Made by a program: the position numbers and the translations under genes
The notes under the pieces: model-generated
Told to the model about the DNA's origin: nothing
What the model saw: only the letters and a program-made list of their open reading frames with translations
The model's database searches: none
Origin: an uncultured virus (IMG/VR IMGVR_UViG_3300009684_000029)
Lineage: Duplodnaviria > Heunggongvirae > Uroviricota > Caudoviricetes
Direction: 5' to 3' (one strand)
IMG/VR virus record: IMGVR_UViG_3300009684_000029
Length of the DNA: 64,000 bases
In this document: positions 4,782 to 50,410 of the stretch, piece after piece
Position numbering within the stretch: position 1 is the first letter of the stretch
Layout: each line of letters starts with the position of its first letter

Positions 4782-4838
4782 ATGAAAAATACATTATTAA
4801 TATCAAGCGATTTCTATTCAGTACAAGGGACGTTGTAA
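4782..4838 (+). pseudogene. Displaced original N-terminus of queE (stub MKNTLLISSDFYSVQG-TL*)
   Basis: Translation matches the queE N-terminus MLISSDFMSVQG, then diverges after GTACAAGG. Confidence 0.85.
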
Positions 4839-5613
4839 AAAGTAAAACTGTCTATATTTATATTAAAAGAATATGGAATATAAAAAAGACATGAAATGGC
4901 GTAAATTAAAATTTACTGCAGAAGAAAAAAAGCAATATTATAATAGTATTATTAAACCTTTAATTTGGGAAGGGTTGACATCAAAAAAAATGCAAGATGA
5001 TAAATTAATATTATGCTCACATCCTACAGCTCGAGTCCTTTTAAAAGAGTTTGGTACTGAAGATGATATTATTAAGTATACAAATAACACGAAGTCTGGT
5101 AAAGCGCATGGTAAAACTAAAGGTCGTGCTAATAAATATAAAGGAATGAAATATGAGGAATGGATGTCACCTGAAAAAGTAATATCTAAAAAGGCTCAAG
5201 CTTCAAAACTTTGGAAGGAAAATAATCCCAGAAAATTCTTTACTGGAAATAATGTTAGTAAAGGACAGCGTTTATTATATGAGACTATAAAAGAAAAATT
5301 TCCTACAGCAGTATTAGAATATGAAATAGCAGCGCCCGGCAAAAAATATTATTTAGATATTGCAGTTCCTGACCTTATGCTAAATTTTGAATATGATGGT
5401 ATATATTGGCATTCATTTCCCGAAGCTATTGAACGAGATAAAAATCGTGATATATACTTAAAATCGTTAGGATGGAAAGTTTTTAGGTATTCATTTAATG
5501 CTAGAAATGATTTGGAAGTTAGAGAAGAATTAATTAAATTAAATATAAATTTTAAAGAATATGAATAAAATAAATAAGATGCTGATTTCATCAGACTTTA
5601 TGAGCGTACAAGG
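4829..5613 (+). mobile_element. Endonuclease element inserted in the 5' end of queE, carrying a replacement N-terminus
   Basis: Bounded by GTACAAGG at 4821-4828 and 5606-5613; contains promoter/hairpin, endonuclease ORF and recoded queE start. Confidence 0.8.
4873..5568 (+). CDS. Putative homing endonuclease, Vsr/DUF559-like
   Basis: YYLDIAVPDLMLNFEYDGIYWH...RDKNRD..L...GWKVFR; basic N-terminal half. Confidence 0.85.
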   Translation: MEYKKDMKWRKLKFTAEEKKQYYNSIIKPLIWEGLTSKKMQDDKLILCSHPTARVLLKEFGTEDDIIKYTNNTKSGKAHGKTKGRANKYKGMKYEEWMSPEKVISKKAQASKLWKENNPRKFFTGNNVSKGQRLLYETIKEKFPTAVLEYEIAAPGKKYYLDIAVPDLMLNFEYDGIYWHSFPEAIERDKNRDIYLKSLGWKVFRYSFNARNDLEVREELIKLNINFKEYE

Positions 5614-6448
5614 AGAAGGTATATCAACTGGTATTCCATCATACTTTGTACGATTAGCAAATTGCAATTTAACTTGCGGAATGTCGAGAGCATTCGCAAA
5701 TAAAATTCTAAAAGAAAAATTACTAGATGATGGTGAAATATTTAAAGGTGATTTAGAATTAGAAGGTAAAGCTACTTGGACCTGTGATTCTACATCACAA
5801 TGGTTATGGAGAGGAGTTGAGCAAGACTTTCAATATCTAATTAATCAGTGGAAACAACAAGGAATATATGATGATATATTAAGTGGTACCATTCATGTTA
5901 TTTGGACAGGTGGTGAACCTACAATTAAGTCACATCAAGAAGCTATTGTTAATTTTCACCACTATCTATATGATGTTGTGTATTATGAAACATTAGAAAA
6001 TCTAAAAGGAACAGCAGTTGCCGATGAAGATGTCTATAACTACATTAAATTAAATTTATTTAATGAAATAGAAACTAACGGCACAATAGTAATTGAAGAT
6101 GCTTTATTCCAAATGCTAAACCAAATAAATTGCTCACCTAAATTAGCAAACTCAGGAATGACTGAGAAACAACGTATTAATCCAGAAGCAATTAAACGAA
6201 TAATGTCACATAATAATTATCAATTTAAATTTGTAATAAGTAATGAAGAAGATATCCAAGAAATATTCAGCGATTTTATCATACCATTTAGCATACCTTT
6301 TAAGAATGTAGTTGTAATGCCAGGAATGGATTCGCAAACTCAGTTTCATGAAAGAACCAATTTCATTATGGAAATGGCCAAGAAATATAAAGTAAGAGCA
6401 TTATCTAGAATGCACATAAGTGCGTGGGACAAAACATTAAATGTATAA
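5561..6448 (+). CDS. queE: 7-carboxy-7-deazaguanine synthase (radical SAM)
   Basis: SVQGEG..G.PS.FVRL..CNLTC...WTCDS, WTGGEP, IETNGT, NCSPKL, FKFV, RMH motifs. Confidence 0.93.
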   Translation: MNKINKMLISSDFMSVQGEGISTGIPSYFVRLANCNLTCGMSRAFANKILKEKLLDDGEIFKGDLELEGKATWTCDSTSQWLWRGVEQDFQYLINQWKQQGIYDDILSGTIHVIWTGGEPTIKSHQEAIVNFHHYLYDVVYYETLENLKGTAVADEDVYNYIKLNLFNEIETNGTIVIEDALFQMLNQINCSPKLANSGMTEKQRINPEAIKRIMSHNNYQFKFVISNEEDIQEIFSDFIIPFSIPFKNVVVMPGMDSQTQFHERTNFIMEMAKKYKVRALSRMHISAWDKTLNV

Positions 6449-20320: not shown

Positions 20321-20485
20321 ATGGGAAGATTAAGAAAATATAATACCGAAAAAGAAAGTAAAGAGGCTCAAAGACAATTTGCTCGCAATTACTATTGGAA
20401 GAATAAAGAACGTCTTGATAGAGAAGCTAAAGAAAGATATCAAAATAAAATCAATCCGAATAATGAATTACGAAAAGATTTATAA
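20321..20485 (+). CDS. Small basic protein preceding the HNH endonuclease (54 aa, not in ORF track)
   Basis: MGRLRKYNTEKESKEAQRQFARNYYWKNKE...; lies behind TATTTATA and a hairpin; overlaps the HNH start. Confidence 0.65.
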   Translation: MGRLRKYNTEKESKEAQRQFARNYYWKNKERLDREAKERYQNKINPNNELRKDL

Positions 20486-21245
20486 TGATATCGTAGCTAA
20501 GGCTAGGGCTGAAGATAGAAGGAAAATAAAGGGCGGAATATATTATGAAGCACATCATATCATACCAAAATGCTTAGGCGGAGACGGAAAGACATCTCAA
20601 CATAAACATCCTAATATTATATTACTTACTGCTAAAGAACATTATATTTGTCATCGATTATTATGTGAAATATATCCAAATAATAATAAATTAGTATATG
20701 CTTTTTGGAGGATGATTAATAGTTCAGGCGGTAATAACGATAGATATATTTTGTCTGGAAATGAATTTAAAAAAATAAAAGAGGAAATAAAGATAAAACT
20801 TGCAGGAAGAATAATTTCATCAGATACTAAAAAAAAGATGTCTATTTCTAGTAAAAATAGACCTCCAATGTCTGAGGAAACTAGAAAAAAATTATCAGAT
20901 AACTCTAAAGGTAAAAATAATCCAGGATCTAAACCTGAAGTAATTGCTAAACGCGTAGCTACTATGACCAAAAAAAGTTTAAATGGTATTTATGGCGTAT
21001 CAGGAAACCGTCATGCAAATTATAAAGGAGTTTTAGAACAAAAGATATTAAAATATAAAGGTGGCATTGCATCTGGTAATGCCACCCAAGTTGAAATTGA
21101 TGGTGTTAATTATGATTCTTATAAAGCAGCAAGTAGAGTATTTGGAATAGCAGGAGAAACCATATCTAGAAGATGTAAATCAGATAAATATCCTGCATGG
21201 AAAATTATAAAAGAATATAAAAAAGATGATAAAGAAAGAACATGA
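20463..21245 (+). CDS. HNH homing endonuclease with NUMOD3-like repeats
   Basis: YYEAHHIIPKCLGG...NIILLTAKEHYICHRLL; S.ETRKKLS repeats; start taken as ATG 20463 rather than TTG 20379. Confidence 0.9.
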   Translation: MNYEKIYNDIVAKARAEDRRKIKGGIYYEAHHIIPKCLGGDGKTSQHKHPNIILLTAKEHYICHRLLCEIYPNNNKLVYAFWRMINSSGGNNDRYILSGNEFKKIKEEIKIKLAGRIISSDTKKKMSISSKNRPPMSEETRKKLSDNSKGKNNPGSKPEVIAKRVATMTKKSLNGIYGVSGNRHANYKGVLEQKILKYKGGIASGNATQVEIDGVNYDSYKAASRVFGIAGETISRRCKSDKYPAWKIIKEYKKDDKERT

Positions 21246-27522: not shown

Positions 27523-27571
27523 AAAAAGGACCGGTTTTAAATATTAAGACGATAATTATATAAAATAAGTT

Positions 27572-27634
27572 ATGACAAACACCAAGAAACCAAAAATTCT
27601 CTTCTTGTGCGATGACCCTAGATTTAGTTGGTAG
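27572..27634 (+). pseudogene. Displaced original N-terminus of the glycosyltransferase at 28736/28807 (stub MTNTKKPKILFLCDDPRFS-W*)
   Basis: Joins in frame to RFSSGIAT at 28813 across the direct repeat AGATTTAGTT. Confidence 0.85.
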
Positions 27635-28822
27635 TTTTTACGACGATCCGAGATATTTATATTAAAGATATCATGGATTCCACTATACATACTATAACAG
27701 GCAGTATTTATATTCCTTGCGTTATTTGCGGGATTAAAATGAAGAATCGTATTAACGGCTCACATCTTAAAAAACACTTATTAACGATTCAAGAATACTT
27801 AATACAATATCCTGCAGCAGAAACAGGCTCATACAGTACATCAAATTTCAAATGTGCTATTTGTAATGAAGTAGTAAATAATAACTCTTCTATCAAATCA
27901 AAACATATTAATGGTCATGGATATACAATAGATGAATATAATATTAAATATACTAAAATAGAATGCGGTTGCGGCTGTGGTAATATAGCAGAATATTCAT
28001 ATTCTAGACATAAATATAATAAGTTCGTTACTGGGCACGATTATAAATCTTGGAATTCAGGATTGACAATGGATACAAACGATTCCTTAAAAAAAATATC
28101 TGAAGCTAGAAAGAAAACTAAAGGAACGTATACTAATAAACAAAAAAAGGAAATTTCCGAAAGATCTAAACTATATTGGAAAGCCCATCCAGAGTCTAAA
28201 ATATTAATGGTGTCTAAGATTAAAAATACTATGTTAGAGAAGTATGGTGTAGATAATTTTAGTAAACATTCATCATTTCTTGAGAAATTTAAAAAAACAT
28301 CGCAAGACCGGTATGGTGTAGATTATCCTAATCAAAACTCTGAAATATATGAAAAATCTTGCAAGAGTCGCAAATACTTTAAAGATTATATACTGCCATC
28401 AGGAAAAAAGATAAGAATACAAGGATATGAAGGTTATGCAATAGATATATTATTAACTATATATCATGAAAATGATATATTAACAAAAAAATCTGATATG
28501 CCTGAAGTATGGTATGAATTTGAAAATAAAAGACGTAGATATTATCCAGATATTTATATACCTTCACAAAATTTAATAATTGAGGTTAAATCTACTTTTA
28601 CATACAAATTAGAGACTCTACAAATACATTCCAAATTAAATGCTTTAAAAGAAATGGGATTTGATGCAAATATTTGGATTATCGATAAAAAAATATTATA
28701 TTCGATTATAAATTAATAAATAAAATAAGTTATATATGTTAAATGATTTAAACCAAGATAGTCGTCACTTGGAGAAGAAGAAGATTCTTTTCTTATGTGA
28801 CGACCCGTGACAAGATTTAGTT
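27630..28822 (+). mobile_element. Endonuclease element inserted in the 5' end of a GT gene, carrying a second copy of the N-terminus
   Basis: Direct repeat AGATTTAGTT at 27620-27629 and 28813-28822; internal promoter/hairpin, endonuclease and KKKILFLCDDP copy. Confidence 0.8.
27673..28716 (+). CDS. Putative homing endonuclease (Zn fingers plus PD-(D/E)xK)
   Basis: CVICG..HLKKH, CAIC..H, CGCGCG; KYGVDN/RYGVDY repeats; YYPDIYIP...IIEVKS; start at ATG 27673. Confidence 0.85.
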   Translation: MDSTIHTITGSIYIPCVICGIKMKNRINGSHLKKHLLTIQEYLIQYPAAETGSYSTSNFKCAICNEVVNNNSSIKSKHINGHGYTIDEYNIKYTKIECGCGCGNIAEYSYSRHKYNKFVTGHDYKSWNSGLTMDTNDSLKKISEARKKTKGTYTNKQKKEISERSKLYWKAHPESKILMVSKIKNTMLEKYGVDNFSKHSSFLEKFKKTSQDRYGVDYPNQNSEIYEKSCKSRKYFKDYILPSGKKIRIQGYEGYAIDILLTIYHENDILTKKSDMPEVWYEFENKRRRYYPDIYIPSQNLIIEVKSTFTYKLETLQIHSKLNALKEMGFDANIWIIDKKILYSIIN

Positions 28823-30168
28823 CAGGTATTGCCACGATGGCCAGAGAAGTTATCCTAGGCACCTGCCACGTATTTGATTACGTTGTTATAGGAGGCGCCT
28901 TAACCCATCCCGAAGAAGGACAAATTATCGATCTTTCAGAATCTATTAAAACAGATACGGGTAAGATTGCAAATGTAAAATTATATCCAGTATCAGGATA
29001 TGGAACACCAGATTTAGTAAGACATTTAATTACTGCAGAAAATCCTGATTGCATTCTTCATTTTACCGATCCTAGATATTGGATATGGTTATATAATATG
29101 GAAAATGAAATACGTCAGCGCATTCCTATTACGTATTTAAATATTTGGGATTGTCCGCCACCACCAATGTATAATAAACCATACTATCAATCATGTGATT
29201 TATTAATGAATATATCTAAACAAACTTATGGTATTGTTCATAAAGTATTAGATGGTTGCAATTATGAAGATTGGCAAATTACCTATGTTCCGCACGGTAT
29301 AAACGAATCTCATTTCTTTCCAATATCAAAAGACTCGGAAGGATATAAAAGCGTCTTAGACTTAAGGAAATCATTCTTAACGGGTAAGAAAAACAAAGAT
29401 GTTATTCCTGAATTCGTATTTTTATATAATTCAAGAAACATAAGAAGAAAACAAACAGCGGATATTATATTAGCATATAAAACATTCTGTGATAAGTTAC
29501 CTAAAGAAAAGGCTGCTAAATGTGTATTAGTTCTTCATACTCAACCAATAGATGAAAATGGAACTAACTTAATTGAAGTTAAAGATGTTCTTTGCCCCGA
29601 TTATAATGTTAGCTTTACAAACAGAGCCTTTAATGTTCATGAAATGAATACTTTATATAATGCATCTGATGTATTAATAAATATTTCAAGTAATGAAGGA
29701 TGGGGATTATCAGCAACGGAAGCTATGATGTCAGGTATATGTACTATTGTTAATATGACAGGAGGTCTTCAGGATCAAGTTGGATTAATGAAAGATGATG
29801 GTACTTTATTAACAGCAGATGATTATAAAGAAAAGGATTGGCATTCAAACCATGATGGAAGATATACTAAATGGGGCAATTGGTCAAAACCAATTATTCC
29901 AAGCAATCGTTCTATTCAAGGCTCTGTACCTACTCCTTATATCTTTGATGATAGAGTTAAGTTTGAAGATGTAGCAGAGGCTATGTTTGAATGGTATAAT
30001 ACTCCAGAAGAAACTAGAATCCAATATGGATTAGAAGCTCGTCAATATTTAATAGATAATAAAATGAGCGCAATAGGTATGTGTGAGAATGTTATTACAG
30101 ATATCACTACCTGCTTAGAAAATTTCGAACCTAAAGAAAGATTTACTCTTTTAAAGCTTACAAAATAA
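28736..30168 (+). CDS. GT4-like glycosyltransferase; 5' segment (28736-28807) is out of frame with the body (28807-30168)
   Basis: Body has FTDPRYW, YVPHG, NSRNIRRK, NEGWGL...EA; the segment MLND...KILFLCDDP stops at TGA 28808, 5 nt short of RFSSG. Confidence 0.8.
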
Positions 30169-30555: not shown

Positions 30556-31890
30556 ATGACATCAAATAAAAAGACTATCGTGCTGCAGGCGCCAATCTCT
30601 ACCTGTAGTGGCTACGGTGCCAGAAGTAGGGATATTGCGAAAGCATTAATAGAGAATGAAAACTATGATGTTACGATTATCCCTACTAGATGGGGTGATA
30701 CACCTCAAAATTTCTTGAATGATAAAGATCCTTTGCATCAAGAAATACTTAAACGATTTGCAGCCCCTAATCAACAAATACCTCAACCTGATACCTTTAT
30801 TCAGATTACAGTTCCTAATGAATTTCAAAAAGTCGGAACGCGCAAATCTATTGGTATTACAGCAGGTATGGAAACTACATTAGTAGATGCAGCTTGGATA
30901 GAAGGAAATAATCGTATGGATATGGTTCTTTGTTCTTCAAAACATTCAACAGAAGTAATGAAATCTAGTAAGTATGATAAAATGGATCAGAACACTAAAC
31001 AAAAGGTTGGAGAATTAATTTCTGAAAAAGAGATTGACATTTTATTTGAAGGAATAGATTTTAATATCTATAAGAAGATAGAAACCATTAATTTTAATGT
31101 AAATGCTTTTATTTCGCAGATACCAGAAACATTCTGCTTTTTAGTTGTTGGGCATTGGCTTCAAGGACAAATGTGGGAAGACAGAAAAAATATGGGAGGT
31201 ACTATATATACTTTCTTAAATGCTTTTAAAGGTAAGAAGAATGTACCTGCATTGATACTTAAAATTAGTTGTGGCTCATATTCTGAAATAGATCGTCAAG
31301 AAATTCAAAAGCGCGTTAATCAAATTAAAAAGATGTTTGATGACGAAGGAATAAGAATACCTAATATTTACTTATTACATGGTGATTTAACGGATGAAGA
31401 AATGAATTCATTATATAATCATCCAAAGGTAAAAGCTATGGTGTCTATGACTAAAGGAGAAGGATTTGGAAGACCGTTAGCAGAATTTGCAGTTACAGGA
31501 AAACCAATTATTGTTTCTCAATATTCAGGTCATATGGATTTTCTTCCTAATGAAATGGTTATGTATGTTCCAGGTGAAATGAGACCAGTTCATGCATCAG
31601 CAGTTATTCCTAATTTAATATTAGCAGAATCGCAATGGTTTATGCCTAATCCAGCAATCGTTGAAAGATATTTAAATGATACTTTTGAAAATTATAAAGT
31701 AAAATTGGAATCATCTCGTAAGCTAACTAAATACTTAAAAGATAATTTTTCTTTTGATAAGATGAAAGAAAATCTTTATAATTATATCGATGCTCCCGTT
31801 AAGGTAATAGCACCGAAGCCACAAATGCAACAATTGAAGTTACCTCAAATCAAAAAAATTGAGCTACCCAAATTAAAGAAAATAGATTAA
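30556..31890 (+). CDS. GT4-like glycosyltransferase
   Basis: SGYGARSRD, VGHWL...DRKN, KGEGFGRPL.EF, SGHMDFL. Confidence 0.88.
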   Translation: MTSNKKTIVLQAPISTCSGYGARSRDIAKALIENENYDVTIIPTRWGDTPQNFLNDKDPLHQEILKRFAAPNQQIPQPDTFIQITVPNEFQKVGTRKSIGITAGMETTLVDAAWIEGNNRMDMVLCSSKHSTEVMKSSKYDKMDQNTKQKVGELISEKEIDILFEGIDFNIYKKIETINFNVNAFISQIPETFCFLVVGHWLQGQMWEDRKNMGGTIYTFLNAFKGKKNVPALILKISCGSYSEIDRQEIQKRVNQIKKMFDDEGIRIPNIYLLHGDLTDEEMNSLYNHPKVKAMVSMTKGEGFGRPLAEFAVTGKPIIVSQYSGHMDFLPNEMVMYVPGEMRPVHASAVIPNLILAESQWFMPNPAIVERYLNDTFENYKVKLESSRKLTKYLKDNFSFDKMKENLYNYIDAPVKVIAPKPQMQQLKLPQIKKIELPKLKKID

Positions 31891-32399: not shown

Positions 32400-32651
32400 A
32401 TGAATGAATCACAATTTATACAATGGCTTAAGGGCTATTTAGATGGAAGAAAAGTATCTGCAGGAGAAAACACCTTATCTTTTGAGTTAGCTACGATCAA
32501 ACATAATTTAAGTATGGTATATACAGATCCTAACCCTAAATATAATATTGAGTCTAGAGATACAAACGGGTATAAAATCTATGTTGATGGTATTGATGGC
32601 CGAACAACAAACTCATCTAATACAGTAAATAAAACAATACTAAAAGGGTAA
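32400..32651 (+). CDS. Hypothetical protein
   Basis: QFIQWLKGYLD. Confidence 0.65.
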   Translation: MNESQFIQWLKGYLDGRKVSAGENTLSFELATIKHNLSMVYTDPNPKYNIESRDTNGYKIYVDGIDGRTTNSSNTVNKTILKG

Positions 32652-33205
32652 TGATAAAACTTAAAAGCTTACTTAAAGAAGCTAAACCAGAAACCCATGA
32701 ATATGGATGTGTAATGTTATATTTTACCTTTCCAGAAATAAATACTATTCATCATCTTATTGATCAAAACGATATCTATACTGATGATAATGATCCTTCT
32801 TATGGATTAGAAGATGAACCTCATATAACATTATTATATGGATTACATCCTGAAGTAACGGTAGATCAAGTAAAGCACGTATTAGATGGACATGTTTATT
32901 CTACTTGTAATATATTTAATGCTTCCGTATTTAATAACGAAAAATATGATGTTTTAAAGTTTGATGTAAGGGGTGAAGGATTAAATGATACTAATACAGC
33001 ATTAAAGGCATATCCTTATACAAGTAATTTTCCTGATTATCATCCTCATCTTACAATTGGATATCTTAAAAAAGGAACGGCTCAAAAATATGCTGATAAG
33101 ATTAATAACATAATGCCCAAAGGATATCAGTTAGTTCCTAAGTATGCAGTATATTCTGAATCAGAAGGAACGAAAAATCAATTACCAATACATACAAATC
33201 AATAA
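32651..33205 (+). CDS. 2H phosphoesterase (T4 57B/Acb1-like) with MIKL leader
   Basis: Two HxT motifs: PHITLLYG and YHPHLTIGY. Confidence 0.8.
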   Translation: MIKLKSLLKEAKPETHEYGCVMLYFTFPEINTIHHLIDQNDIYTDDNDPSYGLEDEPHITLLYGLHPEVTVDQVKHVLDGHVYSTCNIFNASVFNNEKYDVLKFDVRGEGLNDTNTALKAYPYTSNFPDYHPHLTIGYLKKGTAQKYADKINNIMPKGYQLVPKYAVYSESEGTKNQLPIHTNQ

Positions 33206-33532
33206 ATGAATAAAGATAATAATACAACACCAGAGACTATATATGTAGTTCAAGCATCGTCTGGAGAATGGGATTCATATCACGAATGGGTGGTAGGAGT
33301 ATTTGATAACCTTAGAATGGCAAATACTTTAAAAAATACTTTAGATGCAAAAGCCGAAAAAATAAAATCTGAATGCCCGATCAAATATTCGGCTAATTTG
33401 ACTACATCTCAAGTTATGTCTGAAGAAGATGAAAAAATATATTGGGACTACTATGCTTTACATCAAACCGAAATGGATTGGTGTGGAGTACGTATAGAAG
33501 AATGTTATTTAAATATACCAATAGAATACTAA
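33206..33532 (+). CDS. Hypothetical protein
   Basis: IYVV..SSGEWDSY. Confidence 0.65.
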   Translation: MNKDNNTTPETIYVVQASSGEWDSYHEWVVGVFDNLRMANTLKNTLDAKAEKIKSECPIKYSANLTTSQVMSEEDEKIYWDYYALHQTEMDWCGVRIEECYLNIPIEY

Positions 33533-34168
33533 ATGAATATATCATATTGCATAACAGTGTGCGACGAGCATGAAGAATTAGATTTATTATTAAATCATAT
33601 GTTACCTTTATTAGAGGAAGAAGATGAAATTATAATACTTAGAGACATAACAAAAACTAATAGCAAGGTTACTAAGGTAATACTTAAACATACACCATTA
33701 TTTGGCGATCGTATACGAACTATCGAAACTTCACTTAATAAAGACTTTGCGGCATTTAAAAACAATTTTATAGACGCTGCAAATGGCGAGTATATATTTC
33801 AAATTGATGCTGATGAAGTACCTAATGAATTCTTAATAGAAAATATAAAACCAATTCTTAATATTAATAGAGATATAGATGTATTTTATATTCCTAGAGT
33901 TAATAAAGTAACTGACATTACTCAAGAGCATATTCAAAAATGGGGTTGGAGATTTGATGAGAAAGAAAGAATAAATTATCCTGATCCTCAAATGCGTTTA
34001 TTTAAAACAAATAAAGGAATCAAGTGGAAGAATAAAGTTCATGAAGTATTAGATGGTTATGAAACTATGACTACGCTTCCTTGGGAGGAGCATGAAGACT
34101 TTTGCCTTTATCATATTAAATCGATTACAAAACAAGAAAAACAAAATAAATTTTACGAGACAATATGA
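33533..34168 (+). CDS. GT2 glycosyltransferase
   Basis: ISYCITVC.E, DFAAFKN, IFQIDADE, VHE. Confidence 0.9.
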   Translation: MNISYCITVCDEHEELDLLLNHMLPLLEEEDEIIILRDITKTNSKVTKVILKHTPLFGDRIRTIETSLNKDFAAFKNNFIDAANGEYIFQIDADEVPNEFLIENIKPILNINRDIDVFYIPRVNKVTDITQEHIQKWGWRFDEKERINYPDPQMRLFKTNKGIKWKNKVHEVLDGYETMTTLPWEEHEDFCLYHIKSITKQEKQNKFYETI

Positions 34169-35076
34169 ATAAAACATTAATCACAGGAGGAAGTGGAATG
34201 GTAGGAAAATCTTTAATAAAGTATTTACCTAACGCTATTTATATATCTTCTAAAGATTATGATTTAACATCAGAAGAACAAATAATCCAAATGTTTAATC
34301 ATATTAAACCAACAAATGTACTTCACCTAGCAGCAAAAGTAGGAGGAATAATACATAATATAAAATATCCAGCAGAATATTTTGAAGATAACATTTTAAT
34401 GAATAGTTTATTACTTAAACATTCCTATTTAAATAATGTAGATAGATTTATAGGAATATTAAGTACATGTGCCTACCCAGATGTAGTAAAAAATTACCCA
34501 ATACTAGAAAAAGATCTACATATAGGTCCACCATCACCAACTAATTTTTCATATGGATATGCTAAACGGGTATTAGCAGTTCAAATAGATTCTTATAATC
34601 AACAGTATAAAACTAAATACCAGTATTTAATACCTTGTAATTTATATGGAGAATTTGATAAAATGGGTGATAATAGTCATTTTATAGCAGCATTAATTAA
34701 AAAAATACATAATGCTAAAATTAATAATGAAAAAGAAATATTTTTATTTGGAGATGGAAGTCCTTTAAGACAATGTATGCACTCAGATGATTTAGCTTAT
34801 GTTATAAATTATTGTTTAGAAAATAACATTTATGATAATATGAATGTGTCTGTAAATACTAATTTATCAATATTAGAAATAGCTAAAATTGCTCTTAAAG
34901 CTTGTAAAGCTGAGAATATAAAAATAAAATTTGATACAACAAAACCAAATGGACAATACAGAAAAGACGTATCTGTTGATTTATTAAAAGAAAAAATTCC
35001 ATCATTTAATCCTATCAATTTATATGATGGAATTGAAAAAACATATAATTACTTAATTAAAAATAATAAATTATGA
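34165..35076 (+). CDS. GDP-fucose synthase/ColC-like epimerase-reductase
   Basis: TGGSGMVG, HLAAKVGGI, STCAYP, YGYAKR, PCNLYG, KPNGQ. Confidence 0.9.
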   Translation: MNKTLITGGSGMVGKSLIKYLPNAIYISSKDYDLTSEEQIIQMFNHIKPTNVLHLAAKVGGIIHNIKYPAEYFEDNILMNSLLLKHSYLNNVDRFIGILSTCAYPDVVKNYPILEKDLHIGPPSPTNFSYGYAKRVLAVQIDSYNQQYKTKYQYLIPCNLYGEFDKMGDNSHFIAALIKKIHNAKINNEKEIFLFGDGSPLRQCMHSDDLAYVINYCLENNIYDNMNVSVNTNLSILEIAKIALKACKAENIKIKFDTTKPNGQYRKDVSVDLLKEKIPSFNPINLYDGIEKTYNYLIKNNKL

Positions 35077-36254
35077 TAAATTTAGTTCAAGACACTATAG
35101 ATAATAAGGATATAAACCAATTAATTAAATGGTTAAAAACATATCCTAGACTTACTAAAGGTCCATTAACACCTCAATTTGAAGAAAAATTTGCAAAATG
35201 GATAGGAAGCAAATATTCAGTATTTGTAAATTCAGGATCTTCAGCTAATTTATTAATGTTATATGCTTTAATAATATCTAATAAACTGAAAAATAAAAAA
35301 ATAGTTGTACCTTCATTATCATGGGCGACAGATTTAGCTCCTGTAATTCAATTAGGATTAGAACCAATATTAGTAGATTGTAATTTAGATAATTTATCTG
35401 TTGATACTAAACATTTAGAAGAAATATTTGCTAATGAAAGTCCTTCATGTTTAATATTAGTATCAGTTTTAGGACTTAGCCCAGATATGGATAAAATAGT
35501 TAAATTATGTGATAAATACAATGTTATTCTATTAGAAGATAATTGTGAGTCTCAAGGTACTAAATATAAAAATATTAAATTAGGTAATTTTGGATTAATG
35601 TCTTCATTTTCAACATATTTTGGTCATATAATGAGCACTGTTGAAGGTGGAATTATTACTACTAATGATAAAGACATATATGATACTTTAATACAATTAC
35701 GAAGTCATGGTTGGGATAGAGATTTAAATAAAGAAAAACAAACACAACTAAGAAATGAATGGAATGTAGATGAATTCTCAGCATTATATACATTTTATAT
35801 CCCTGGTTTTAATTTACGTCCAACAGATATAAACTCATTTTTTGGAATAAATCAATTAAATAAAGTTGATAAATTAATAAAAAAACGAAATAGTAATTTT
35901 AAATTGTTTAAAAAATTATTAAAAGATAAAGTTTGGTTTCCTAAAGAAACAAATAACACATACACATCAAGTTTTTGTATTCCTATAATAATGAACAGTT
36001 CATTAGAAAAAGAACAATTAATAAAGATACTAACAAAAAATAATATAGAATGTAGACCATTAATTTCAGGTTCTATGGGTAATCAACCATTTTATAAAAA
36101 AATATATGGCATTAAAAAATTACCTAATTGTTCTATCATAGATGATAGAGGAATATACATTCCTAACCATCCAAAATTAAGTAATGAACAAATTGAATTT
36201 ATGTGTAGTCTTATAATTAACTTAACAAATGAAAGTAAAAGCAATTCATTTTGA
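35073..36254 (+). CDS. ColD-like GDP-4-keto-6-deoxymannose 3-dehydratase (DegT fold)
   Basis: VNSGSSANL, EDNCES; STYFGHIMST.EGG has His and no Schiff-base Lys; RSHGW. Confidence 0.75.
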   Translation: MINLVQDTIDNKDINQLIKWLKTYPRLTKGPLTPQFEEKFAKWIGSKYSVFVNSGSSANLLMLYALIISNKLKNKKIVVPSLSWATDLAPVIQLGLEPILVDCNLDNLSVDTKHLEEIFANESPSCLILVSVLGLSPDMDKIVKLCDKYNVILLEDNCESQGTKYKNIKLGNFGLMSSFSTYFGHIMSTVEGGIITTNDKDIYDTLIQLRSHGWDRDLNKEKQTQLRNEWNVDEFSALYTFYIPGFNLRPTDINSFFGINQLNKVDKLIKKRNSNFKLFKKLLKDKVWFPKETNNTYTSSFCIPIIMNSSLEKEQLIKILTKNNIECRPLISGSMGNQPFYKKIYGIKKLPNCSIIDDRGIYIPNHPKLSNEQIEFMCSLIINLTNESKSNSF

Positions 36255-37032
36255 TATAGAACAATATTTACATTCTTGTAAAGATATTGATTTTTCATTA
36301 TTCTTAGAAACTATTCCTGAAACTCAAGACGAATTATCTTCTATTAATATAATTTCTATTCATGAACCAAATGAATATTTTGGTAAACATGATTGGATTA
36401 TTCAAAATAAAAATTTATTTGATGTTATATTAACTTGGAATGATAAAATATTGAATACATGTGAGAATGCCATTTATTTACCATTTGGTCATACTTGGTT
36501 TAAACCTGATCAATATAAAAAAAATCATAAAAAAGAATTTAAGGTAGCTCATTTAAGAGGAAATTTACTTAAATCATATGGGCACCAAATTCGTTGGGAA
36601 ATCTTAGATAGAAAAGATGAAATTAAAATACCTACTAAATTTTTTGATGTATATGGTGATAGACATAATATTGAAAGAGCTAGAATAGATAAAGAAGAAG
36701 TTTTTGGAGATTCAATGTTTGGAATAGCCATAGAAAATTTTTCACATAGGGGATTTTTTACAGAAAAAATATTAGATTGTTTTTTATTAAAAACCATTCC
36801 TATTTATTGGGGATGTTCTAATATAGATACATTTTTTAATAAAGATGGTATTATTAAATTTGATAATGTGGATGATTTTATTTATATTTCTAATAAATTA
36901 ACAGAAGAGGATTATTTTTCAAGAAAAGATATAATCGAATGTAATTATCAATTAGCTCTTGAATATGTTAATTATGAACAAAATATAGTAAATAAAATCA
37001 CCGAAATTTTTAAATTAAATGACCTTATATGA
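36229..37032 (+). CDS. GT10-like (fucosyl/colitosyl) transferase
   Basis: FGIAIEN....FFTEKILDCF...TIPIYWG. Confidence 0.75.
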   Translation: MKVKAIHFDIEQYLHSCKDIDFSLFLETIPETQDELSSINIISIHEPNEYFGKHDWIIQNKNLFDVILTWNDKILNTCENAIYLPFGHTWFKPDQYKKNHKKEFKVAHLRGNLLKSYGHQIRWEILDRKDEIKIPTKFFDVYGDRHNIERARIDKEEVFGDSMFGIAIENFSHRGFFTEKILDCFLLKTIPIYWGCSNIDTFFNKDGIIKFDNVDDFIYISNKLTEEDYFSRKDIIECNYQLALEYVNYEQNIVNKITEIFKLNDLI

Positions 37033-38342
37033 AAGAAATCTTAGAATTAGTAGAAAATTATATTAAAGAAAAGCATTCCAATAAAAAATGGGAAGCAGGA
37101 AAAGATTGGGTTCAATATGCAGGCCCATACTTTGATTCACAAGAATATGTAGCTGCTGTAAAGTCTTTATTAGGAGAATGGTTAGTATTAGGTGCTGATG
37201 CGATTAAGTTTGAAACTAAATTTCCAAAGCTATTTGGTAAAGAATATGGTTTATTAACTAATAGCGGGTCAAGTGCTAACTTATTAATGATGTTAGCTCT
37301 TACATCTAAAAGAGGATTAAATCTTCCAAAAGGAACTAAAGTAATTACTCCTATCGCAGGATTTCCGACTACTATTAATCCAATATTTCAAGTAGGATTT
37401 ACTCCTGTATTTGTTGATATTGAATTAGATACTTTAAACTTAGATTTAAATGGAGTTGAAAAGGCATGTATTGAAAATCCAGATGCTAAGATTATTACTT
37501 TTGCCCATGTATTAGGTAATCCGCCTGATATGACACGATTAATGGAAATAGTAGAAAAGTATAACTTAATCTTATTAGAGGATTGTTGCGATGCTTTAGG
37601 ATCTACTTACGAAGGTAAACCATTAGGATCATATGGAATGTTATCAAGTTGCTCATTTTATCCCGCACACCATATGACTTTAGGCGAAGGAGGATTTGTA
37701 GCTTGTAATGATGAAGCAACAGAAAGAATCATTAGAAGTTTTAGAGAATGGGGAAGAGGATGTTATTGTGTAGGTAAGCAAAATTTATTAGAGTGCGGAA
37801 CATGTAATAATAGATTTAGTAACTGGCTACCTTCATTGCCAAATGATATATTTGATCATAAATATACTTACGAAGAAATTGGATATAATTTAAAGCCAAT
37901 CGAAATGCAAGCTGCTATTGGCTTAGTTCAAATGGAAAAGTTAAAAGAGATTGGCGAAAAAAGAAGAGAAAATTATAAGAATTTATTTGAAGCTTTTAGT
38001 AAATATGAGAAATACTTTCATTTACATAAAGCTCAACCAGGCGCTGACGTTGATTGGTTTGCATTTCCAGTTACTTTAAAAGATTCTGCCCCATTTAAAC
38101 GATCAGACATCTGTCAATTCTTTGAAGCTAATAAAGTGCAAACCCGTCCATACTTCGCAGGTAATATAATGCTGCAACCTGCTTATTCCGGTATAATGGA
38201 TCCAGAGAAAGTAATTAATGATTATCCTGTTGCTAGAAAAGTAACTACCGATACATTTTTCTTAGGCACGTCACCAGTGATTGATAAATTAAAAACAGAT
38301 TATATTGAAAGTATATTAGATAAGTTTATTAATACATTATGA
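37029..38342 (+). CDS. rfbH: RfbH/DdhC NDP-4-keto-6-deoxyhexose 3-dehydratase (E1)
   Basis: SFYPAHHMT.GEGG, Fe-S Cys motif WGRGCYC...C..C, DHKY. Confidence 0.9.
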   Translation: MKEILELVENYIKEKHSNKKWEAGKDWVQYAGPYFDSQEYVAAVKSLLGEWLVLGADAIKFETKFPKLFGKEYGLLTNSGSSANLLMMLALTSKRGLNLPKGTKVITPIAGFPTTINPIFQVGFTPVFVDIELDTLNLDLNGVEKACIENPDAKIITFAHVLGNPPDMTRLMEIVEKYNLILLEDCCDALGSTYEGKPLGSYGMLSSCSFYPAHHMTLGEGGFVACNDEATERIIRSFREWGRGCYCVGKQNLLECGTCNNRFSNWLPSLPNDIFDHKYTYEEIGYNLKPIEMQAAIGLVQMEKLKEIGEKRRENYKNLFEAFSKYEKYFHLHKAQPGADVDWFAFPVTLKDSAPFKRSDICQFFEANKVQTRPYFAGNIMLQPAYSGIMDPEKVINDYPVARKVTTDTFFLGTSPVIDKLKTDYIESILDKFINTL

Positions 38343-39304
38343 TAATTAATAAACGAGCTTTAATTATAGGTATAACTGGTATGGTTGGCAGTCATTTAGC
38401 GGATTTTTTATTAGCTAAAGGCTATCAAGTATATGGTACAACAAGAAGTGATATAAAGGATGTAAATCTAAATAATATAAATAATATTAAAGATAAGATT
38501 ACTTTAATTAAAGTAGATATAAATAACCAAACTGATATAAATTCAGCAATTGAAATAAGTAATCCAGATGAAATTTATAATTTTGGAGGTATTTCATTTT
38601 CACCAAATAGTTGGATATCTCCAGAGTATACTGCTAGTGTAAATGGATTAGGTCCATTGCGAGTATTAGAAGGAATTAAAACTTATAATACGAATATTAA
38701 ACTTTATCAAGCTAATAGCAGTGAGATATATGGTAACTTATCAAATATTATTGTTGACGAGTGTACTATTCCAAATCCAAAGACTCCTTATGGTATTGCA
38801 AAGCTATATGCTAAATGGATGATAGATCATTACAGAAAGAACCATAACATTTTTGCTTGCAATGGAATAACATTTAATCATGAATCTGAAAGAAGAGGAT
38901 TACAATTCGTAACCAGAAAAATAACAAGAGGCGTAGCAGACATTTATCTAGGAAATATATCTTCAATTGAACTTGGAAATTTAGATATCTCTAGAGATTG
39001 GGGCTATACTCCAGACTATGTAGAAGCAATGTGGTTAATGCTTCAACACAATAAGCCAGATGATTATATTATATGCACTGGCCAAATGAATACTTTAAAA
39101 GATTTTTTAAGAATAGCATTTGAAAATATAGGAATTACGGATTTTTCTTCTTATATTAAAGTAAATCAAGATTTTATACGTAACAATGATATAAATCTTC
39201 TTCAAGGTAATCCCAATAAAATAAAAAAGGAATTAGGGTGGGCATCGACAACAAATTTAGATACTTTAATTAGAAAAATGGTTATTAACGATATTAAAAT
39301 TTAA
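38339..39304 (+). CDS. gmd: GDP-mannose 4,6-dehydratase
   Basis: GITG..GS, YQA.SSE, PYG.AK, FNHES.RRG..FVTRKI, LGNLD..RDWG. Confidence 0.9.
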   Translation: MIINKRALIIGITGMVGSHLADFLLAKGYQVYGTTRSDIKDVNLNNINNIKDKITLIKVDINNQTDINSAIEISNPDEIYNFGGISFSPNSWISPEYTASVNGLGPLRVLEGIKTYNTNIKLYQANSSEIYGNLSNIIVDECTIPNPKTPYGIAKLYAKWMIDHYRKNHNIFACNGITFNHESERRGLQFVTRKITRGVADIYLGNISSIELGNLDISRDWGYTPDYVEAMWLMLQHNKPDDYIICTGQMNTLKDFLRIAFENIGITDFSSYIKVNQDFIRNNDINLLQGNPNKIKKELGWASTTNLDTLIRKMVINDIKI

Positions 39305-39308
39305 AATA

Positions 39309-40526
39309 ATGATAGTAAATTTAGGAAAACATTATGTATCTGATTTTATTCAGTCAGATGCAGATTATGAAGGTAAAGAAAAATATAGTTTAGATTTAGA
39401 ATTAGATCCTATAGTCGGAGCAGCTAAATTAACTATAATGCCCCCGGCTAATACAATGTGGGGTAAGTATTGGTACAGGTCTGGTATTAATGATACTATG
39501 ACTAAAGAATTAGGTAATATTGTAAATGAAATTACGTCTAGAGTTAAATGGAATGATAATGATATTTGGTTAGATATTGCTTGTAATGATGGGACATTAT
39601 TATCTCAAGTACCTAATAACTTTGTGAAATTAGGAATTGATCCGTGCGACGATTCATATTTTGAGCAATCAAGTAAACAAGGAACAATCGTTCAAGATTA
39701 TTTTTCATATGATGCTTATGAAAAAACAGGATATGGTGATAAAAAAGCAAAAGTAATCACGACCATTGCAATGTTCTATGATCTAATAGATCCGCATCCA
39801 TTTATCAATGATGTATGTAAAGTATTAGATGATAATGGTATTTGGGTATTGCAATTATCATATACACCTTTAATGATAAAACAACTAGCTTTTGATAATA
39901 TTTGTCACGAGCATGCATATTATCATTCACTTAATTCATTTAAGAAATTATTTGAACAACATAATCTTAAAATTGTAGATTGCAGCTTAAATGATGTTAA
40001 TGGTGGTAGTTTTAGAGTATATGTACAAAAGAATGAAGCTTTAATTACTTCATTTGGAACTTCCCCGTTACGAGATGTTTGTAATTTTAGAGTTAATTCT
40101 TTATTGGAATATGAAAATACTAACTTAGATATTAGCAATGCAGATGTCTGGAAAAAGTTTATGTCTGATATTGAAGCATTAAAAGACCAAACAGTAACCT
40201 TTATTAAAAAAGAAAAAGCCAAAGGAAAAATAATCTGTGGATATGGTGCTTCTACTAAAGGAAATACATTACTTCAGTGGTTTGGATTAAATAATACATT
40301 AATTGATGCGATTGCTGAAAGATCACCTTATAAGTTTGGATTAAAGACAATTGGAACTAATATTCCTATTTTATCAGAAAAAGATGTAAGAGCTATGAAC
40401 CCGGATTATATGTTAGTTCTTCCTTGGCATTTTATTAATGAGTTTATAGAAAGAGAAAATGAGTTTTTAACTAAAGGTGGTAAGTTTATCGTGCCTTGCC
40501 CTAAATTTGAAATAATACAAAAATAA
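39309..40526 (+). CDS. NDP-sugar C-methyltransferase
   Basis: YWYRSG, LDIACNDGTLL, ICHEH, GYGASTKGN, LPWHF. Confidence 0.88.
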   Translation: MIVNLGKHYVSDFIQSDADYEGKEKYSLDLELDPIVGAAKLTIMPPANTMWGKYWYRSGINDTMTKELGNIVNEITSRVKWNDNDIWLDIACNDGTLLSQVPNNFVKLGIDPCDDSYFEQSSKQGTIVQDYFSYDAYEKTGYGDKKAKVITTIAMFYDLIDPHPFINDVCKVLDDNGIWVLQLSYTPLMIKQLAFDNICHEHAYYHSLNSFKKLFEQHNLKIVDCSLNDVNGGSFRVYVQKNEALITSFGTSPLRDVCNFRVNSLLEYENTNLDISNADVWKKFMSDIEALKDQTVTFIKKEKAKGKIICGYGASTKGNTLLQWFGLNNTLIDAIAERSPYKFGLKTIGTNIPILSEKDVRAMNPDYMLVLPWHFINEFIERENEFLTKGGKFIVPCPKFEIIQK

Positions 40527-42058
40527 TGAAAATATATTTTATTAATAGTAAAACAAAAAATTGCGGAGTCTATCAATATGGACTTAGAATTTGGGATATA
40601 ATAAAAGAATCAAAATTAGATATCAGTTATCATGAAATAGAAACATTAGAAGAGTTCTATAAACTAGATCTTAATAATGTTGATATTTTATTTTTTAATT
40701 GGATTGAAGGCGGACAAACAGGCCCATTTGGCTGGTACCAAAATTCAGTCGTTTTAGATATAAAAGAAAATTATAATCATATTAAAACAATAACCATAAT
40801 GCATACTCCAGATTTATGGACTGCTACATTTAATTATTATATTGATCAAAATCCTCTTAATAATGGATTTATAAGGCCATTATATAAATATGACTTAAAT
40901 AAACCCAAACCACAACATGATATTACTCATATTGGGTCTTTTGGATTTGCTGGCGATCATAAAGGATTTGATGATCTTGTAAAATTAGTAAATGACCAAT
41001 ATGAGGAAGCTCAAATTAATTTACATATTACTAGAGCCCATTACGGAGATGTCGACGGTATTCATCAACAAAGAATTATAGATAAAATAAATGCAATTCC
41101 TTTAAAGCCAGGAATTAAATTAAATATTACTACGAATTTTATTAATAATGATGAATTATTAGATTTTGTTTATAATAACGATATTATTATTTTAGCTTAT
41201 AGATTAGGTAGAGACCCATCAAGCTTACCTGATTATCCAATATCAGCAAATATTCCTATAGCAATAACAAATGTAGGAATGTTTAGTCATATTTATAATG
41301 AGAATATTGATATTGCTTTACATACTATACCTGAAATATTAGAATATAATAAAACATACAATTATATAGGTAAATTAAGAGAAGAATGGTCTAGAGAAAA
41401 TTTACTTGAAACGTTTGAAAGTTTAGTAATAATGATACATAATTCAATTGAAGATAAAACATACGCTCAAGTATGTCAGGATCAATTTGCATTAACATTA
41501 ATTGGTAAAAATGGTTATTTTCTAGATTTAGGAGCAGGGTGGGATCATTCAGGTATAAATAGTAATACTGTATTATTAGAAGAAAATGACTGGAGTGGTA
41601 TTTGTATAGAAGGCCATGGCCCATCCCATGCCTTAAGATTAGAAAAAGCTAAACAAGCTCTTGTGTTAAATGTTTTTATTCCTGATACGCAAATAATAGA
41701 TATACTTAAAAATAATAATGCTCCTAAAATAATTGATTATATATCAGTAGATATTGATCCAATGTCAATGATTGCATTAAATAATTTTCCGTTTGATGAA
41801 TATGAGTTTAAAGTAATGACATTTGAACATGATTCATATAGAAATGGCCCAGAACAAAAAAATCAATCACATTCTTTATTAACTGAAAAAGGTTATATAT
41901 GTTTATGTAATGACATTCAAGTACCTGAAGGTATGGGTGAGACTAATTATTTTGAAGATTGGTGGATTAATCCAAAATATTTTTCGGAAGAATTTATATC
42001 TAATAATACCTTTAATCAAAAATCTGGAAAATATATTATAGAAAACATTAAAAAATAA
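40526..42058 (+). CDS. Glycosyltransferase-like / FkbM methyltransferase fusion
   Basis: N-terminal CGVYQYG...GSFGF...KGF; C-terminal QD.F...GYFLDLGA...SNT..LE...IDYISVDID...FEHD. Confidence 0.7.
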   Translation: MKIYFINSKTKNCGVYQYGLRIWDIIKESKLDISYHEIETLEEFYKLDLNNVDILFFNWIEGGQTGPFGWYQNSVVLDIKENYNHIKTITIMHTPDLWTATFNYYIDQNPLNNGFIRPLYKYDLNKPKPQHDITHIGSFGFAGDHKGFDDLVKLVNDQYEEAQINLHITRAHYGDVDGIHQQRIIDKINAIPLKPGIKLNITTNFINNDELLDFVYNNDIIILAYRLGRDPSSLPDYPISANIPIAITNVGMFSHIYNENIDIALHTIPEILEYNKTYNYIGKLREEWSRENLLETFESLVIMIHNSIEDKTYAQVCQDQFALTLIGKNGYFLDLGAGWDHSGINSNTVLLEENDWSGICIEGHGPSHALRLEKAKQALVLNVFIPDTQIIDILKNNNAPKIIDYISVDIDPMSMIALNNFPFDEYEFKVMTFEHDSYRNGPEQKNQSHSLLTEKGYICLCNDIQVPEGMGETNYFEDWWINPKYFSEEFISNNTFNQKSGKYIIENIKK

Positions 42059-42059
42059 T

Positions 42060-42311
42060 ATGGATACAATTGGAAATTTAATTGATAAATTAACAATAGC
42101 TAATATTCGTATCTGGATGGCAGAAGATATTAAGCGCGATAAGAATGCGACAGATAAACAAATTGCAGATGCAACGAAAGTAACTAATGTCGTAAATGGA
42201 TTAAGGACTGATTTAATTCAAGAGATTGATGAGTCATTAAACGAAATGGTAAGTACTGGTAAATTACAAAAATTATATAAACAAGGATCAACAAAAATGT
42301 ATGGTAAATAA
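42060..42311 (+). CDS. DUF4254-like small helical protein
   Basis: TIGNLIDKLTI.NIRIW..ED...N..R.DLI.EID. Confidence 0.6.
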   Translation: MDTIGNLIDKLTIANIRIWMAEDIKRDKNATDKQIADATKVTNVVNGLRTDLIQEIDESLNEMVSTGKLQKLYKQGSTKMYGK

Positions 42312-46650: not shown

Positions 46651-46651
46651 T

Positions 46652-50398: not shown

Positions 50399-50410
50399 TG
50401 AAAAATATCT

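Follow-up and report, generated by a model that had tools for sequence, protein, structure and literature searches.

The stretch of DNA analysed here (hereafter the window) is the 64,000-nucleotide IMG/VR record IMGVR_UViG_3300009684_000029, from an uncultured virus of the Caudoviricetes. It is AT-rich (G+C content of 29%) and its gene content is phage-like. Between positions 27572 and 30168, it carries a glycosyltransferase (GT) gene, the 5′ end of which is split by an endonuclease gene. All the features described below lie on the plus strand. The original 5′ end of the gene persists as an orphaned stub of 20 codons (27572..27634), MTNTKKPKILFLCDDPRFSW, closed by a TAG stop. The stub matches intact alleles up to position 27629 and then diverges; it is collinear with the insert-free contigs L003 and L004 up to ...CCTAGATTTAGTT, where the alignment breaks. 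It contains the left copy (27620..27629, GT codons R-F-S) of a 10-bp direct repeat, AGATTTAGTT, the right copy of which (28813..28822, 100% identical) is the start of the GT body. Downstream of the stub, 13 of 14 bases at 27640..27654 are those of the D-D-P-R codons of intact alleles, thus forming a partial third copy of the target region. This copy overlaps a promoter-like motif, ATATTTATATTAAA (27653..27666), located 20 nt 5′ of the nuclease ATG. Around the motif, an RNA hairpin is predicted (27645..27679), the 3′ arm of which buries the nuclease AUG (-13.6 kcal/mol, z-score -2.9, with 3 of 200 shuffled sequences equally stable).

The nuclease gene (27673..28716) encodes 347 amino acids; its frame is open from 27628 to 28716 and the first ATG is at 27673. 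It is followed by a duplicated gene-start upstream region (28717..28735), in which ATAAAATAAGTTAT is present as it is at 27560-27573, and then by a replacement 5′ open reading frame (ORF) of the GT gene (28736..28810). The latter joins a unique N-terminal extension, MLNDLNQDSRHLE, to a homologous replacement of the first beta strand, KKKILFLCDDP, and ends with TGA. Over the 24 bases encoding I-L-F-L-C-D-D-P, replacement copy and stub differ at 6 positions. A 17-bp RNA hairpin (28761..28804), made of an 8-bp lower and a 9-bp upper stem, is predicted to end directly before the CCG codon. At the junction (28805..28812), this last sense codon precedes a 5-base spacer, TGACA (28808-28812), the first three bases of which are the stop (28808-28810). 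The GT body (28813..30168) then resumes at the invariant Arg17 with RFSSGIATMARE... A first, sequence-only reading of the window had described the stub, the nuclease ORF, the second gene start at 28736 with its synonymous changes, the 10-bp repeat and a hairpin near TATTTATA; all of them are indeed present, the last as the fold at 27645-27679.

The GT body matches the Pfam family Glycos_transf_1 (38.2 bits for a cut-off of 26.4) and is 98% identical to intact alleles. On the basis of the Pfam match, the enzyme is assigned to the GT-B fold, with two Rossmann-like domains. The structural model of the intact allele (predicted local distance difference test score, pLDDT, of 91.7; predicted template modelling score of 0.90) has strand beta1 spanning residues 7-14, followed by a loop (15-20) and by helix alpha1 (21-33). 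Across 44 diverse homologues, residues K8, D14, D15, R17, S20 and G21 never vary, and the break lies in the beta1-alpha1 loop, between the invariant D15 and R17. The sequence-only reading had predicted how homologous GTs should begin, and all 138 intact distinct relatives display ...K-I-L-x-L-x-D-D-x-R-x-x-S-G at this place. A second, related GT gene adjoins at 30556-31890.

Comparison with related contigs shows that the insertion is polymorphic. In L003, L004, L022 and L023, the GT of which is 98% identical, the gene is intact, devoid of stub, nuclease and second copy, and reads MTNTKKTKILFLCDDPRFSSGIATMARE (L004 and L023 are one and the same 41,642-bp contig). In the window and in the near-identical contig L002, the same site is occupied. 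That deletion between the two repeats should restore the gene had been anticipated, and these natural insert-free alleles have precisely the restored sequence. They begin like the stub, which is the original start of the lineage. They also support the idea, put forward from the sequence, that an endonuclease gene entered the 5′ end of the GT gene and supplied a new 5′ end to it. L005, a 197-kb contig with a GT 82% identical, contains the same cassette, its nuclease being 71.5% identical to that of the window. The L005 stub, MKKKKILFLCDDPRF followed by a stop, is the native start of the empty contigs L025, L027 and L028 and is unlike the window stub. The sequence common to both cassettes runs from ...CGACGATCCGAGATATTTATATTAAA to ...GACGACCCGT plus the stop, and the stop ending the orphaned original start is brought by the cassette. 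Like a homing element, the insert is present or absent at a fixed site among near-identical genomes, and the target is altered in its carriers, by synonymous changes and by the 5-base spacer. Thus, bases ~27635-28812 very probably constitute a mobile homing-endonuclease cassette lodged between GT codons 16 and 21.

It is highly improbable that no mobile cassette exists here, and that the arrangement would reflect a one-off local duplication, a misassembly or a self-splicing intron lying between the repeats. Such a view could invoke the 10-bp repeat flanking the insert, since removal between its copies restores the frame. However, the same cassette sits behind a different stub in L005, and the interruption recurs in independent assemblies, L024 and the sequencing run X7 from another study. 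An intron, moreover, would need no second copy of the gene start. The repeat itself calls for caution: 16 direct-repeat families of 9-22 nt occur in this 1.6-kb AT-rich stretch, and a 10-bp repeat alone is not beyond chance. It is meaningful because its two copies are identical codons of one gene.

In self-splicing introns, U is the last base of the 5′ exon and G that of the intron. Splice sites placed anywhere within the repeat break this rule, and the Rfam models, including those of group I and group II introns, gave no match at E≤1 between 27400 and 29000; an intron was therefore rejected. Misassembly, which the sequence-only reading had named as fatal to its proposal, was rejected as well, together with sequencing error as the source of the spacer. 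L024 and an X7 contig, which come from other samples, carry the spacer unchanged, the X7 contig running from the last part of the nuclease gene through replacement ORF and spacer with no indel. Another X7 contig, 150 nt in length, shows the insert-free joint 27619->28813. It has 9 mismatches and therefore represents a related insert-free strain, giving no evidence of deletion or circles within the same strain; the X7 evidence comes from assembled contigs, in which rare deleted molecules or circles are invisible.

Exact-pattern scans for the cassette ends matched only the two known contigs. The scans of the sequence collection covered the best 80 of 139 and the best 80 of at least 596 relatives, and further cases may exist. 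In the L005 group, an extra gene of 191 codons (L005 2182-2757; L026 2800-3375) lies between an SLOG-like gene and the GT gene. The last nuclease codons of both cassettes resemble the intergenic region 3′ of this extra gene, which suggests that the cassette was assembled in a background like that of the L005 group.

Residues 141-330 of the nuclease match Pfam DUF7487 (4.7e-45), and PHROGs returns weak matches to its 'homing endonuclease' and 'endonuclease' families. The N-terminal third contains repeated Cys/His motifs which, read by eye, are zinc-finger-like. Among 30 aligned homologues, D293 and K306 of the motif YPD(293)...E304-V-K306 are invariant and E304 is nearly so. In the structural model (pLDDT 86.5), the C-terminal domain adopts a PD-(D/E)xK fold. 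Compared with structure representatives, residues 228-347 give Z scores of 8.8 for TnsA, 6.6 for Vsr, 6.0 for I-Bth0305I, 5.7 for Hjc and 4.5 for I-Ssp6803I, values that do not support a closer relationship. For the homing endonucleases I-Ssp6803I and I-Bth0305I (PDB 2ost and 3r3p), 81 and 77 residues are aligned, respectively; the catalytic fold is shared, with no relationship at the sequence level, and the N-terminal DNA-binding part differs. Foldseek matches of the model are weak (best E of 0.021), and the sole sequence match in the PDB is a phage exonuclease (E of 0.039). The family comprises 449 relatives at E≤1e-5, including variants 86%, 83% and 72% identical.

The GT reading frame is not simply repaired by the replacement start. 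In the window, the junction reads ...TGT GAC GAC CCG TGA, and the five bases TGACA precede AGA, with the body in another frame. The sequence-only reading had seen a simple start replacement; this part of it fails at the GT gene because of the stop and of the 5-base spacer. It had also overlooked the 17-bp hairpin at the stop, the existence of interrupted starts devoid of nuclease (L024 and L026) and a distant interrupted lineage (L030). L024 belongs to the group with 98% identity and L026 to the L005 group; both have the interrupted start only, with neither stub nor nuclease. In L005 and L026, the junction is CCG TAA AAA CCT AGA, in frame but stopped, with the proline codon repeated. In L030, the GT of which is 50% identical, a stop-containing insert occurs at the same codon (...GAT GAC TGT CGA TAA AA AGA GTT...); this insert is independent of that of the window. 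In all cases the stop directly follows the last sense codon: CCG-TGA (window, L024), CCG-TAA (L005, L026) or CGA-TAA (L030). Overall, 167 usable loci gave 141 distinct upstream sequences, 138 intact and 3 interrupted forms. P0128, a GT with 74% identity, is uninterrupted and bears an extension of this kind, MLDNLSKNGLHEKKKK...

Between the window and L024, none of the 77 bases of the replacement ORF plus spacer differ, while 16 of the next 120 do. Similarly, L005 and L026 are identical over the 81 bases of the module and differ at 11 of the next 120. A module that is identical in diverged flanks defines a sharp boundary at the 3′ end of the spacer, and the comparison indicates that the module has spread, or was converted, across diverged backgrounds. 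In L024 and L026, the sequence upstream of it looks like a recombinant of the two gene-start upstream regions that cassette-bearing contigs carry, a pattern which would fit a loss of stub and nuclease, as in the MobA elements discussed below. In L030, a GIY-YIG nuclease gene (L030 956-1753) is found 2.5 kb upstream of the interrupted start, not adjoining it. A 341-aa protein with weak Vsr/DUF559-like matches (L030 5797-6822) lies between two GT genes of this contig, again not adjoining the interrupted start.

The predicted hairpin is tied to the interruption. When the 141 distinct sequences are ranked according to the predicted minimum free energy upstream of the conserved Arg codon, the interrupted forms occupy ranks 1-3. 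The hairpin of the window (28761-28804) reaches -22.4 kcal/mol (z-score -4.1; 0 of 200 shuffled sequences as stable) and its lower stem is GC-rich; the values are -25.2 kcal/mol (z-score -5.6) for L026 and -28.0 kcal/mol (z-score -7.9; 0 of 200) for L030. The 138 intact sequences have a mean of -7.4, a standard deviation of 3.2 and a minimum of -17.8 kcal/mol, and folding of an insert-free allele is not beyond chance (z-score +0.25). The 5′ arm is made of the non-conserved codons of the N-terminal extension and the 3′ arm of the conserved beta1 codons. In L030 the stem has a different sequence, with a 10-bp lower part ending in the codon that precedes TAA. When the three sequences are compared, 5 of 18 stem pairs are compensatory; for instance, a change of an Asp codon in L030 is offset by an Arg-to-His change on the opposite arm. 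The uninterrupted P0128 carries Leu at the position of an Arg that is present in the interrupted forms and contributes, through its codon, to the pairing of the lower stem. Finally, the stem is built of rare codons, GAC being 13% of Asp codons and CCG 6% of Pro codons.

How could a GT be produced from such a locus? To make the enzyme, ribosomes probably have to hop over the break or to restart after it. The comparisons above show the insertion polymorphism, the limits of the cassette, the interruption and its association with the hairpin. The following mechanism may be envisaged, and the cleavage, the protection and the hop that it comprises are what we infer from the above features. During co-infection, the nuclease would cut the uninterrupted ...GAY GAY CCN AGA TTY AGT... 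of insert-free phages, and repair would copy the cassette into the cut allele. The spacer and the synonymous changes would split the recognition sequence, thereby shielding the carrier; the gap probably splits the nuclease target. On the mRNA, the upstream hairpin would hide the nuclease AUG on read-through transcripts. A ribosome that has translated the 24-codon replacement ORF would stall, its P site occupied by CCG and its A site by the stop. The 17-bp hairpin, by refolding behind the ribosome, would then drive a short forward hop over the spacer, and translation would resume at AGA, the codon of Arg17, to yield a full-length enzyme. The hairpin probably helps ribosomes to cross the gap. 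The explanation taken as a whole, cassette plus ribosome hop, is plausible, with chances that we place somewhat short of even.

Several features agree with a hop. As at known bypassing sites, the stop directly follows the putative take-off codon and an mRNA structure is predicted at the site. A hop from CCG to CCT in L005 and L026 would yield the exact consensus, CDDPRFSSG. In L030, a hop from CGA to AGA would yield DDCRVSSG, which has the consensus length, the fit being approximate. Matched take-off and landing codons are thus found in L005 and L026 (CCG...CCT), in part in L030 (CGA...AGA), and not in the window. A hop also fits a hairpin whose lower stem can form only by pulling the mRNA from the ribosome.

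A series of observations weighs against this explanation. In the window, a 5-base slide puts ACA, not CCN, in the P site; because a cognate landing codon is lacking, a hop fits the window version poorly. Displacements differ among the three variants (+5, +9, and +8 or +5) and obey no common rule. The distance from stem base to resume codon is not constant either, the values being 9, 12-13, and 8 or 11 bases. As regards the hairpin, some intact alleles carry weaker ones, of -12 to -18 kcal/mol, and the upper stem is in part a by-product of the complementarity of Lys codons to Leu/Phe codons. The known independent interrupted lineages number only two or three, and L030 is a single contig, for which no close relatives were found in IMG/VR. 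The ratio of nonsynonymous to synonymous substitution rates (dN/dS) of the GT body is low, 0.048 between the window and L024 and 0.129 between L005 and L026. It is no proof of function, since the divergence may predate the arrival of the module, given that identical modules sit on diverged bodies. In the RNA runs that were found, only 7-11% of the sampled words of the stretch were present. Lastly, a GTG at 28807-28809, in the frame of the body, overlaps the TGA of the replacement ORF (28807-28810), a classic stop-restart layout.

This layout leads to a different use of the same cassette, in which the GT would be made in two pieces. Translation would stop at TGA and restart at GTG 28807, giving a body that begins M-T-RFSSG and associates non-covalently with the beta1 peptide. 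The hairpin would then enforce coupling, the body start being accessible only once a ribosome opens the stem. Precedents exist, as phage genes split by nucleases can work as complexes (T4 genes 39/60 and Aeh1 nrdA; bioRxiv 10.1101/2022.08.31.505936; PMC2988022), and a ribosome that has reached a stop can re-initiate nearby, no more than a few codons away (PMC2988022). In L030 a body-frame ATA overlaps TAA. However, ATA is a very poor start codon, and in L005 and L026 none of ATG, GTG and TTG occurs between TAA and the invariant R17/S20/G21, the first ATG lying 8 codons later. Furthermore, a 24-aa peptide would need to supply beta1 of the predicted GT-B N-terminal domain, and the break falls between the invariant D15 and R17. 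We therefore consider production in two pieces doubtful.

It may also be imagined that the GT is inactivated in the carriers, the stop and the spacer being a repair scar or a protective indel in a dispensable enzyme. The hairpin would then serve otherwise, for instance by protecting the 3′ end of the nuclease transcript. The broken frame, the lack of a cognate landing codon in the window and the paralogous GT next door (30556-31890) would be in line with such a loss. The modules, in addition, look recently spread, and intact bodies therefore need not reflect selection after the interruption. Against inactivation, the bodies of all five distinct interrupted contigs (window, L024, L005, L026 and L030) run for ~450 codons with no further stop. 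The modules of the window and of L030 are only about half identical, yet beta1 codons, compensated stem and stop position are kept. The hairpin accompanies the interruption in L030, where no nuclease gene lies directly upstream, and, since no U-tract follows the stem, it is unlike a terminator. An inactive GT thus appears unlikely.

The mobA and gene 60 system, with which the hop explanation invites comparison, was reportedly the subject of work by Bonocora et al. in 2011, cited in the preprint of Manning and Atkins. In that preprint, the MobA element is described as comprising a nuclease, an N-terminal extension (NTE), a homologous replacement region (HomR) and a bypass, the insert extending to the landing codon or slightly beyond; loss of the nuclease is frequent, with retention of the bypass, and the gene 60 cassette is called unique, its purpose a puzzle (Manning & Atkins, bioRxiv 10.1101/2022.08.31.505936). 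The order at the GT locus is the same: nuclease, new start with a unique extension, respelled copy of the target, stop-containing gap. In both, the insert ends at or after the resume point, the gap lies within the target region of the nuclease, insert-free relatives exist at 96-99% identity, and nuclease-less derivatives keep the gap (here L024 and L026). The parts are not the same, however. MobA is an HNH nuclease and its target a topoisomerase gene, whereas a PD-(D/E)xK nuclease (DUF7487) and a glycosyltransferase are involved here. Upstream of the T4 element stands a functional ORF1 with a C-terminal extension. Here, with the insertion so close to the gene start (codons 16-21), what remains upstream is a dead stub beside its replacement. 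The gap is of 50 nt in gene 60 and of 5-9 bases here; no stem-loop occurs within our gap, and a long hairpin ends at the take-off codon instead. Matched take-off and landing codons are present here only in the L005 form. As nuclease, target, position, gap length and RNA elements all differ, it is not a member of the MobA/gene 60 family. Tentatively, it could be a second, independently evolved, endonuclease-linked bypass, in which a hop of 5-9 bases over a stop would be driven by a hairpin and the gap would shield the DNA of the element; we hold this to be possible rather than probable.

For gene 60, it has been proposed that pairing within the exiting mRNA pushes the ribosome forward during bypassing, and constructs provide examples of short stop-hopping (Wills et al., bioRxiv 10.1101/2024.12.09.627546). 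According to the review of Atkins et al. (2016, PMC5009743), in-frame stop hops had at that time no known natural example. With such stop-hopping, and with the notion of a 'saviour indel plus compensatory recoding', the GT locus has in common a stop after the take-off codon, a skip of a few bases and, in L005, a codon for the same amino acid on both sides of the gap. A saviour indel would likewise guard against attack while low-level recoding supplies the product. On the other hand, the known hops are low-level, come from synthetic constructs and have no stimulatory hairpin. Our literature search, the scope of which did not extend to the supplementary metagenomic bypass-cassette tables of the preprints, returned no description of the present element, and DUF7487 was not mentioned among the papers listed.

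Programmed bypassing has rested almost entirely on T4 gene 60. If the hop explanation holds, an unrelated nuclease, in an unrelated gene and in phages of a different bacterial phylum, would have reached the same package, which would argue that a protective gap combined with recoding is a general solution for nucleases residing within essential sequence. A short gap and a single hairpin would also offer a simpler system to test the push of exiting mRNA on the ribosome. The three variants, with displacements of 5, 9 and 8 bases, and their uninterrupted relative would form a ready mutational series. Even with no hop, the alleles before and after insertion document the entry of a nuclease into a coding region with neither intron nor intein, and the locus shows a protective module outliving its nuclease.

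Replacement of a gene end by a mobile nuclease has a fungal parallel. In fungal mitochondria, mobile endonuclease ORFs create hybrid genes, as in atp6 of Allomyces macrogynus, where the nuclease brings a foreign gene end and the original end is left as a remnant. There, the 3′ end of a mitochondrial gene is replaced, in frame. In the present phage the 5′ end is concerned, with its own upstream region and out of frame.

The 5′ part of the cassette recalls the control of T4 nucleases, in which a hairpin over the start limits expression to late transcripts (Edgell, Gibb & Belfort 2010, PMC2988022). As with the free-standing homing endonucleases of T4, the nuclease gene lies beside its target, and a promoter-like motif sits in a hairpin that would hide the start on longer transcripts. 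Promoter motif and host differ, no Shine-Dalgarno sequence is involved here, and the controls proposed here are putative. The operator of I-TevI resembles its homing site (15/20 identity) and overlaps its own promoter (PMC2988022). Similarly, the target-like sequence at 27640-27654, matching 13 of 14 bases and identical in the L005 cassette, overlaps the promoter-like motif, and by analogy it may act as an operator that mimics the homing site. It may equally be that the stub once continued here and has decayed, as T-M-A-R-E codons are matched at 14 of 20 bases.

A comparable arrangement exists elsewhere in the window, at the queE gene (4782..6448). A stub of 18 codons, MKNTLLISSDFYSVQGTL followed by a stop (4782-4838), precedes the same promoter-like motif as in the GT cassette (4854-4867) and a nuclease gene of 231 codons (4873-5568), with weak Pfam matches to MTES_1575/DUF559. 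The queE gene itself has a new, in-frame start and no interruption (5561-6448). That the two loci have the same layout, with nucleases of different types, had been recognized in the sequence-only reading, which took it as a general strategy. The recurrence of the scar is borne out by the data; it may reflect a strategy or may simply result from break repair.

The motif ATATTTATWWTWAA has 6 matches in the window for 0.59 expected, and none of 100 shuffled sequences reaches 6. Its copies, at 4854, 7087, 10908, 20301, 25347 and 27653, are all on the plus strand, 19-26 nt before an ATG, and probably represent a class of phage promoters. Nuclease-like genes follow three or four of them, to judge from the Pfam matches, namely DUF7487 (27673), weak MTES_1575/DUF559 matches (4873), an I-TevI DNA-binding domain (20379) and zinc-finger-like matches only (10934). 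For the genes at 10934 and 20321, stubs of the downstream genes were sought and no clear one was seen. The first of them (10934-11782, 282 aa) has a ROS/MucR-type zinc-finger match and overlaps the downstream GTP cyclohydrolase I gene by 4 bases; preceded by the motif, it may be another nuclease-like insert. In the region 20321-21245, a gene with an I-TevI-type DNA-binding domain and NUMOD3 opens at TTG 20379, and the ATG at 20321 behind the promoter-like motif is in another frame and starts a short ORF. This nuclease gene may be frameshifted or decaying.

Among the 71 ORFs of at least 100 aa in the window, TAA ends 57, TGA 14 and TAG none, and TAG ends only 1 of the 95 ORFs of at least 60 aa. 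Reassignment of stop codons was considered and rejected: TAG read as sense joins no real genes, and the interruption in the window is in any case a change of frame. A suppressor or unusual tRNA was also thought of, and no tRNA genes were found in the window.

The window further has genes for a family B DNA polymerase, a clamp loader and the queuosine pathway, as well as a large cluster for sugar modification. Its closest named relative is Flavobacterium phage immuto, with a GT identity of 48%, and the nearest IMG/VR record is a 23.6-kb fragment identical to the window across the region studied here. The sugar-nucleotide enzyme cluster extends over ~17 kb (33500-50400), 3′ of both GT genes. It includes epimerases/dehydratases, two DegT-type aminotransferases, a C-methyltransferase, a thiamine pyrophosphate enzyme, a ketopantoate hydroxymethyltransferase and GT2 enzymes. 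For a gene at 32651-33205, Pfam gives a weak match, with a score under the curated cut-off, to the family of anti-CBASS protein Acb1 / 2′-5′ RNA ligase. Finally, the product of 6452-7066 matches in Pfam the Thoeris inhibitor Tad6 (4.2e-12).

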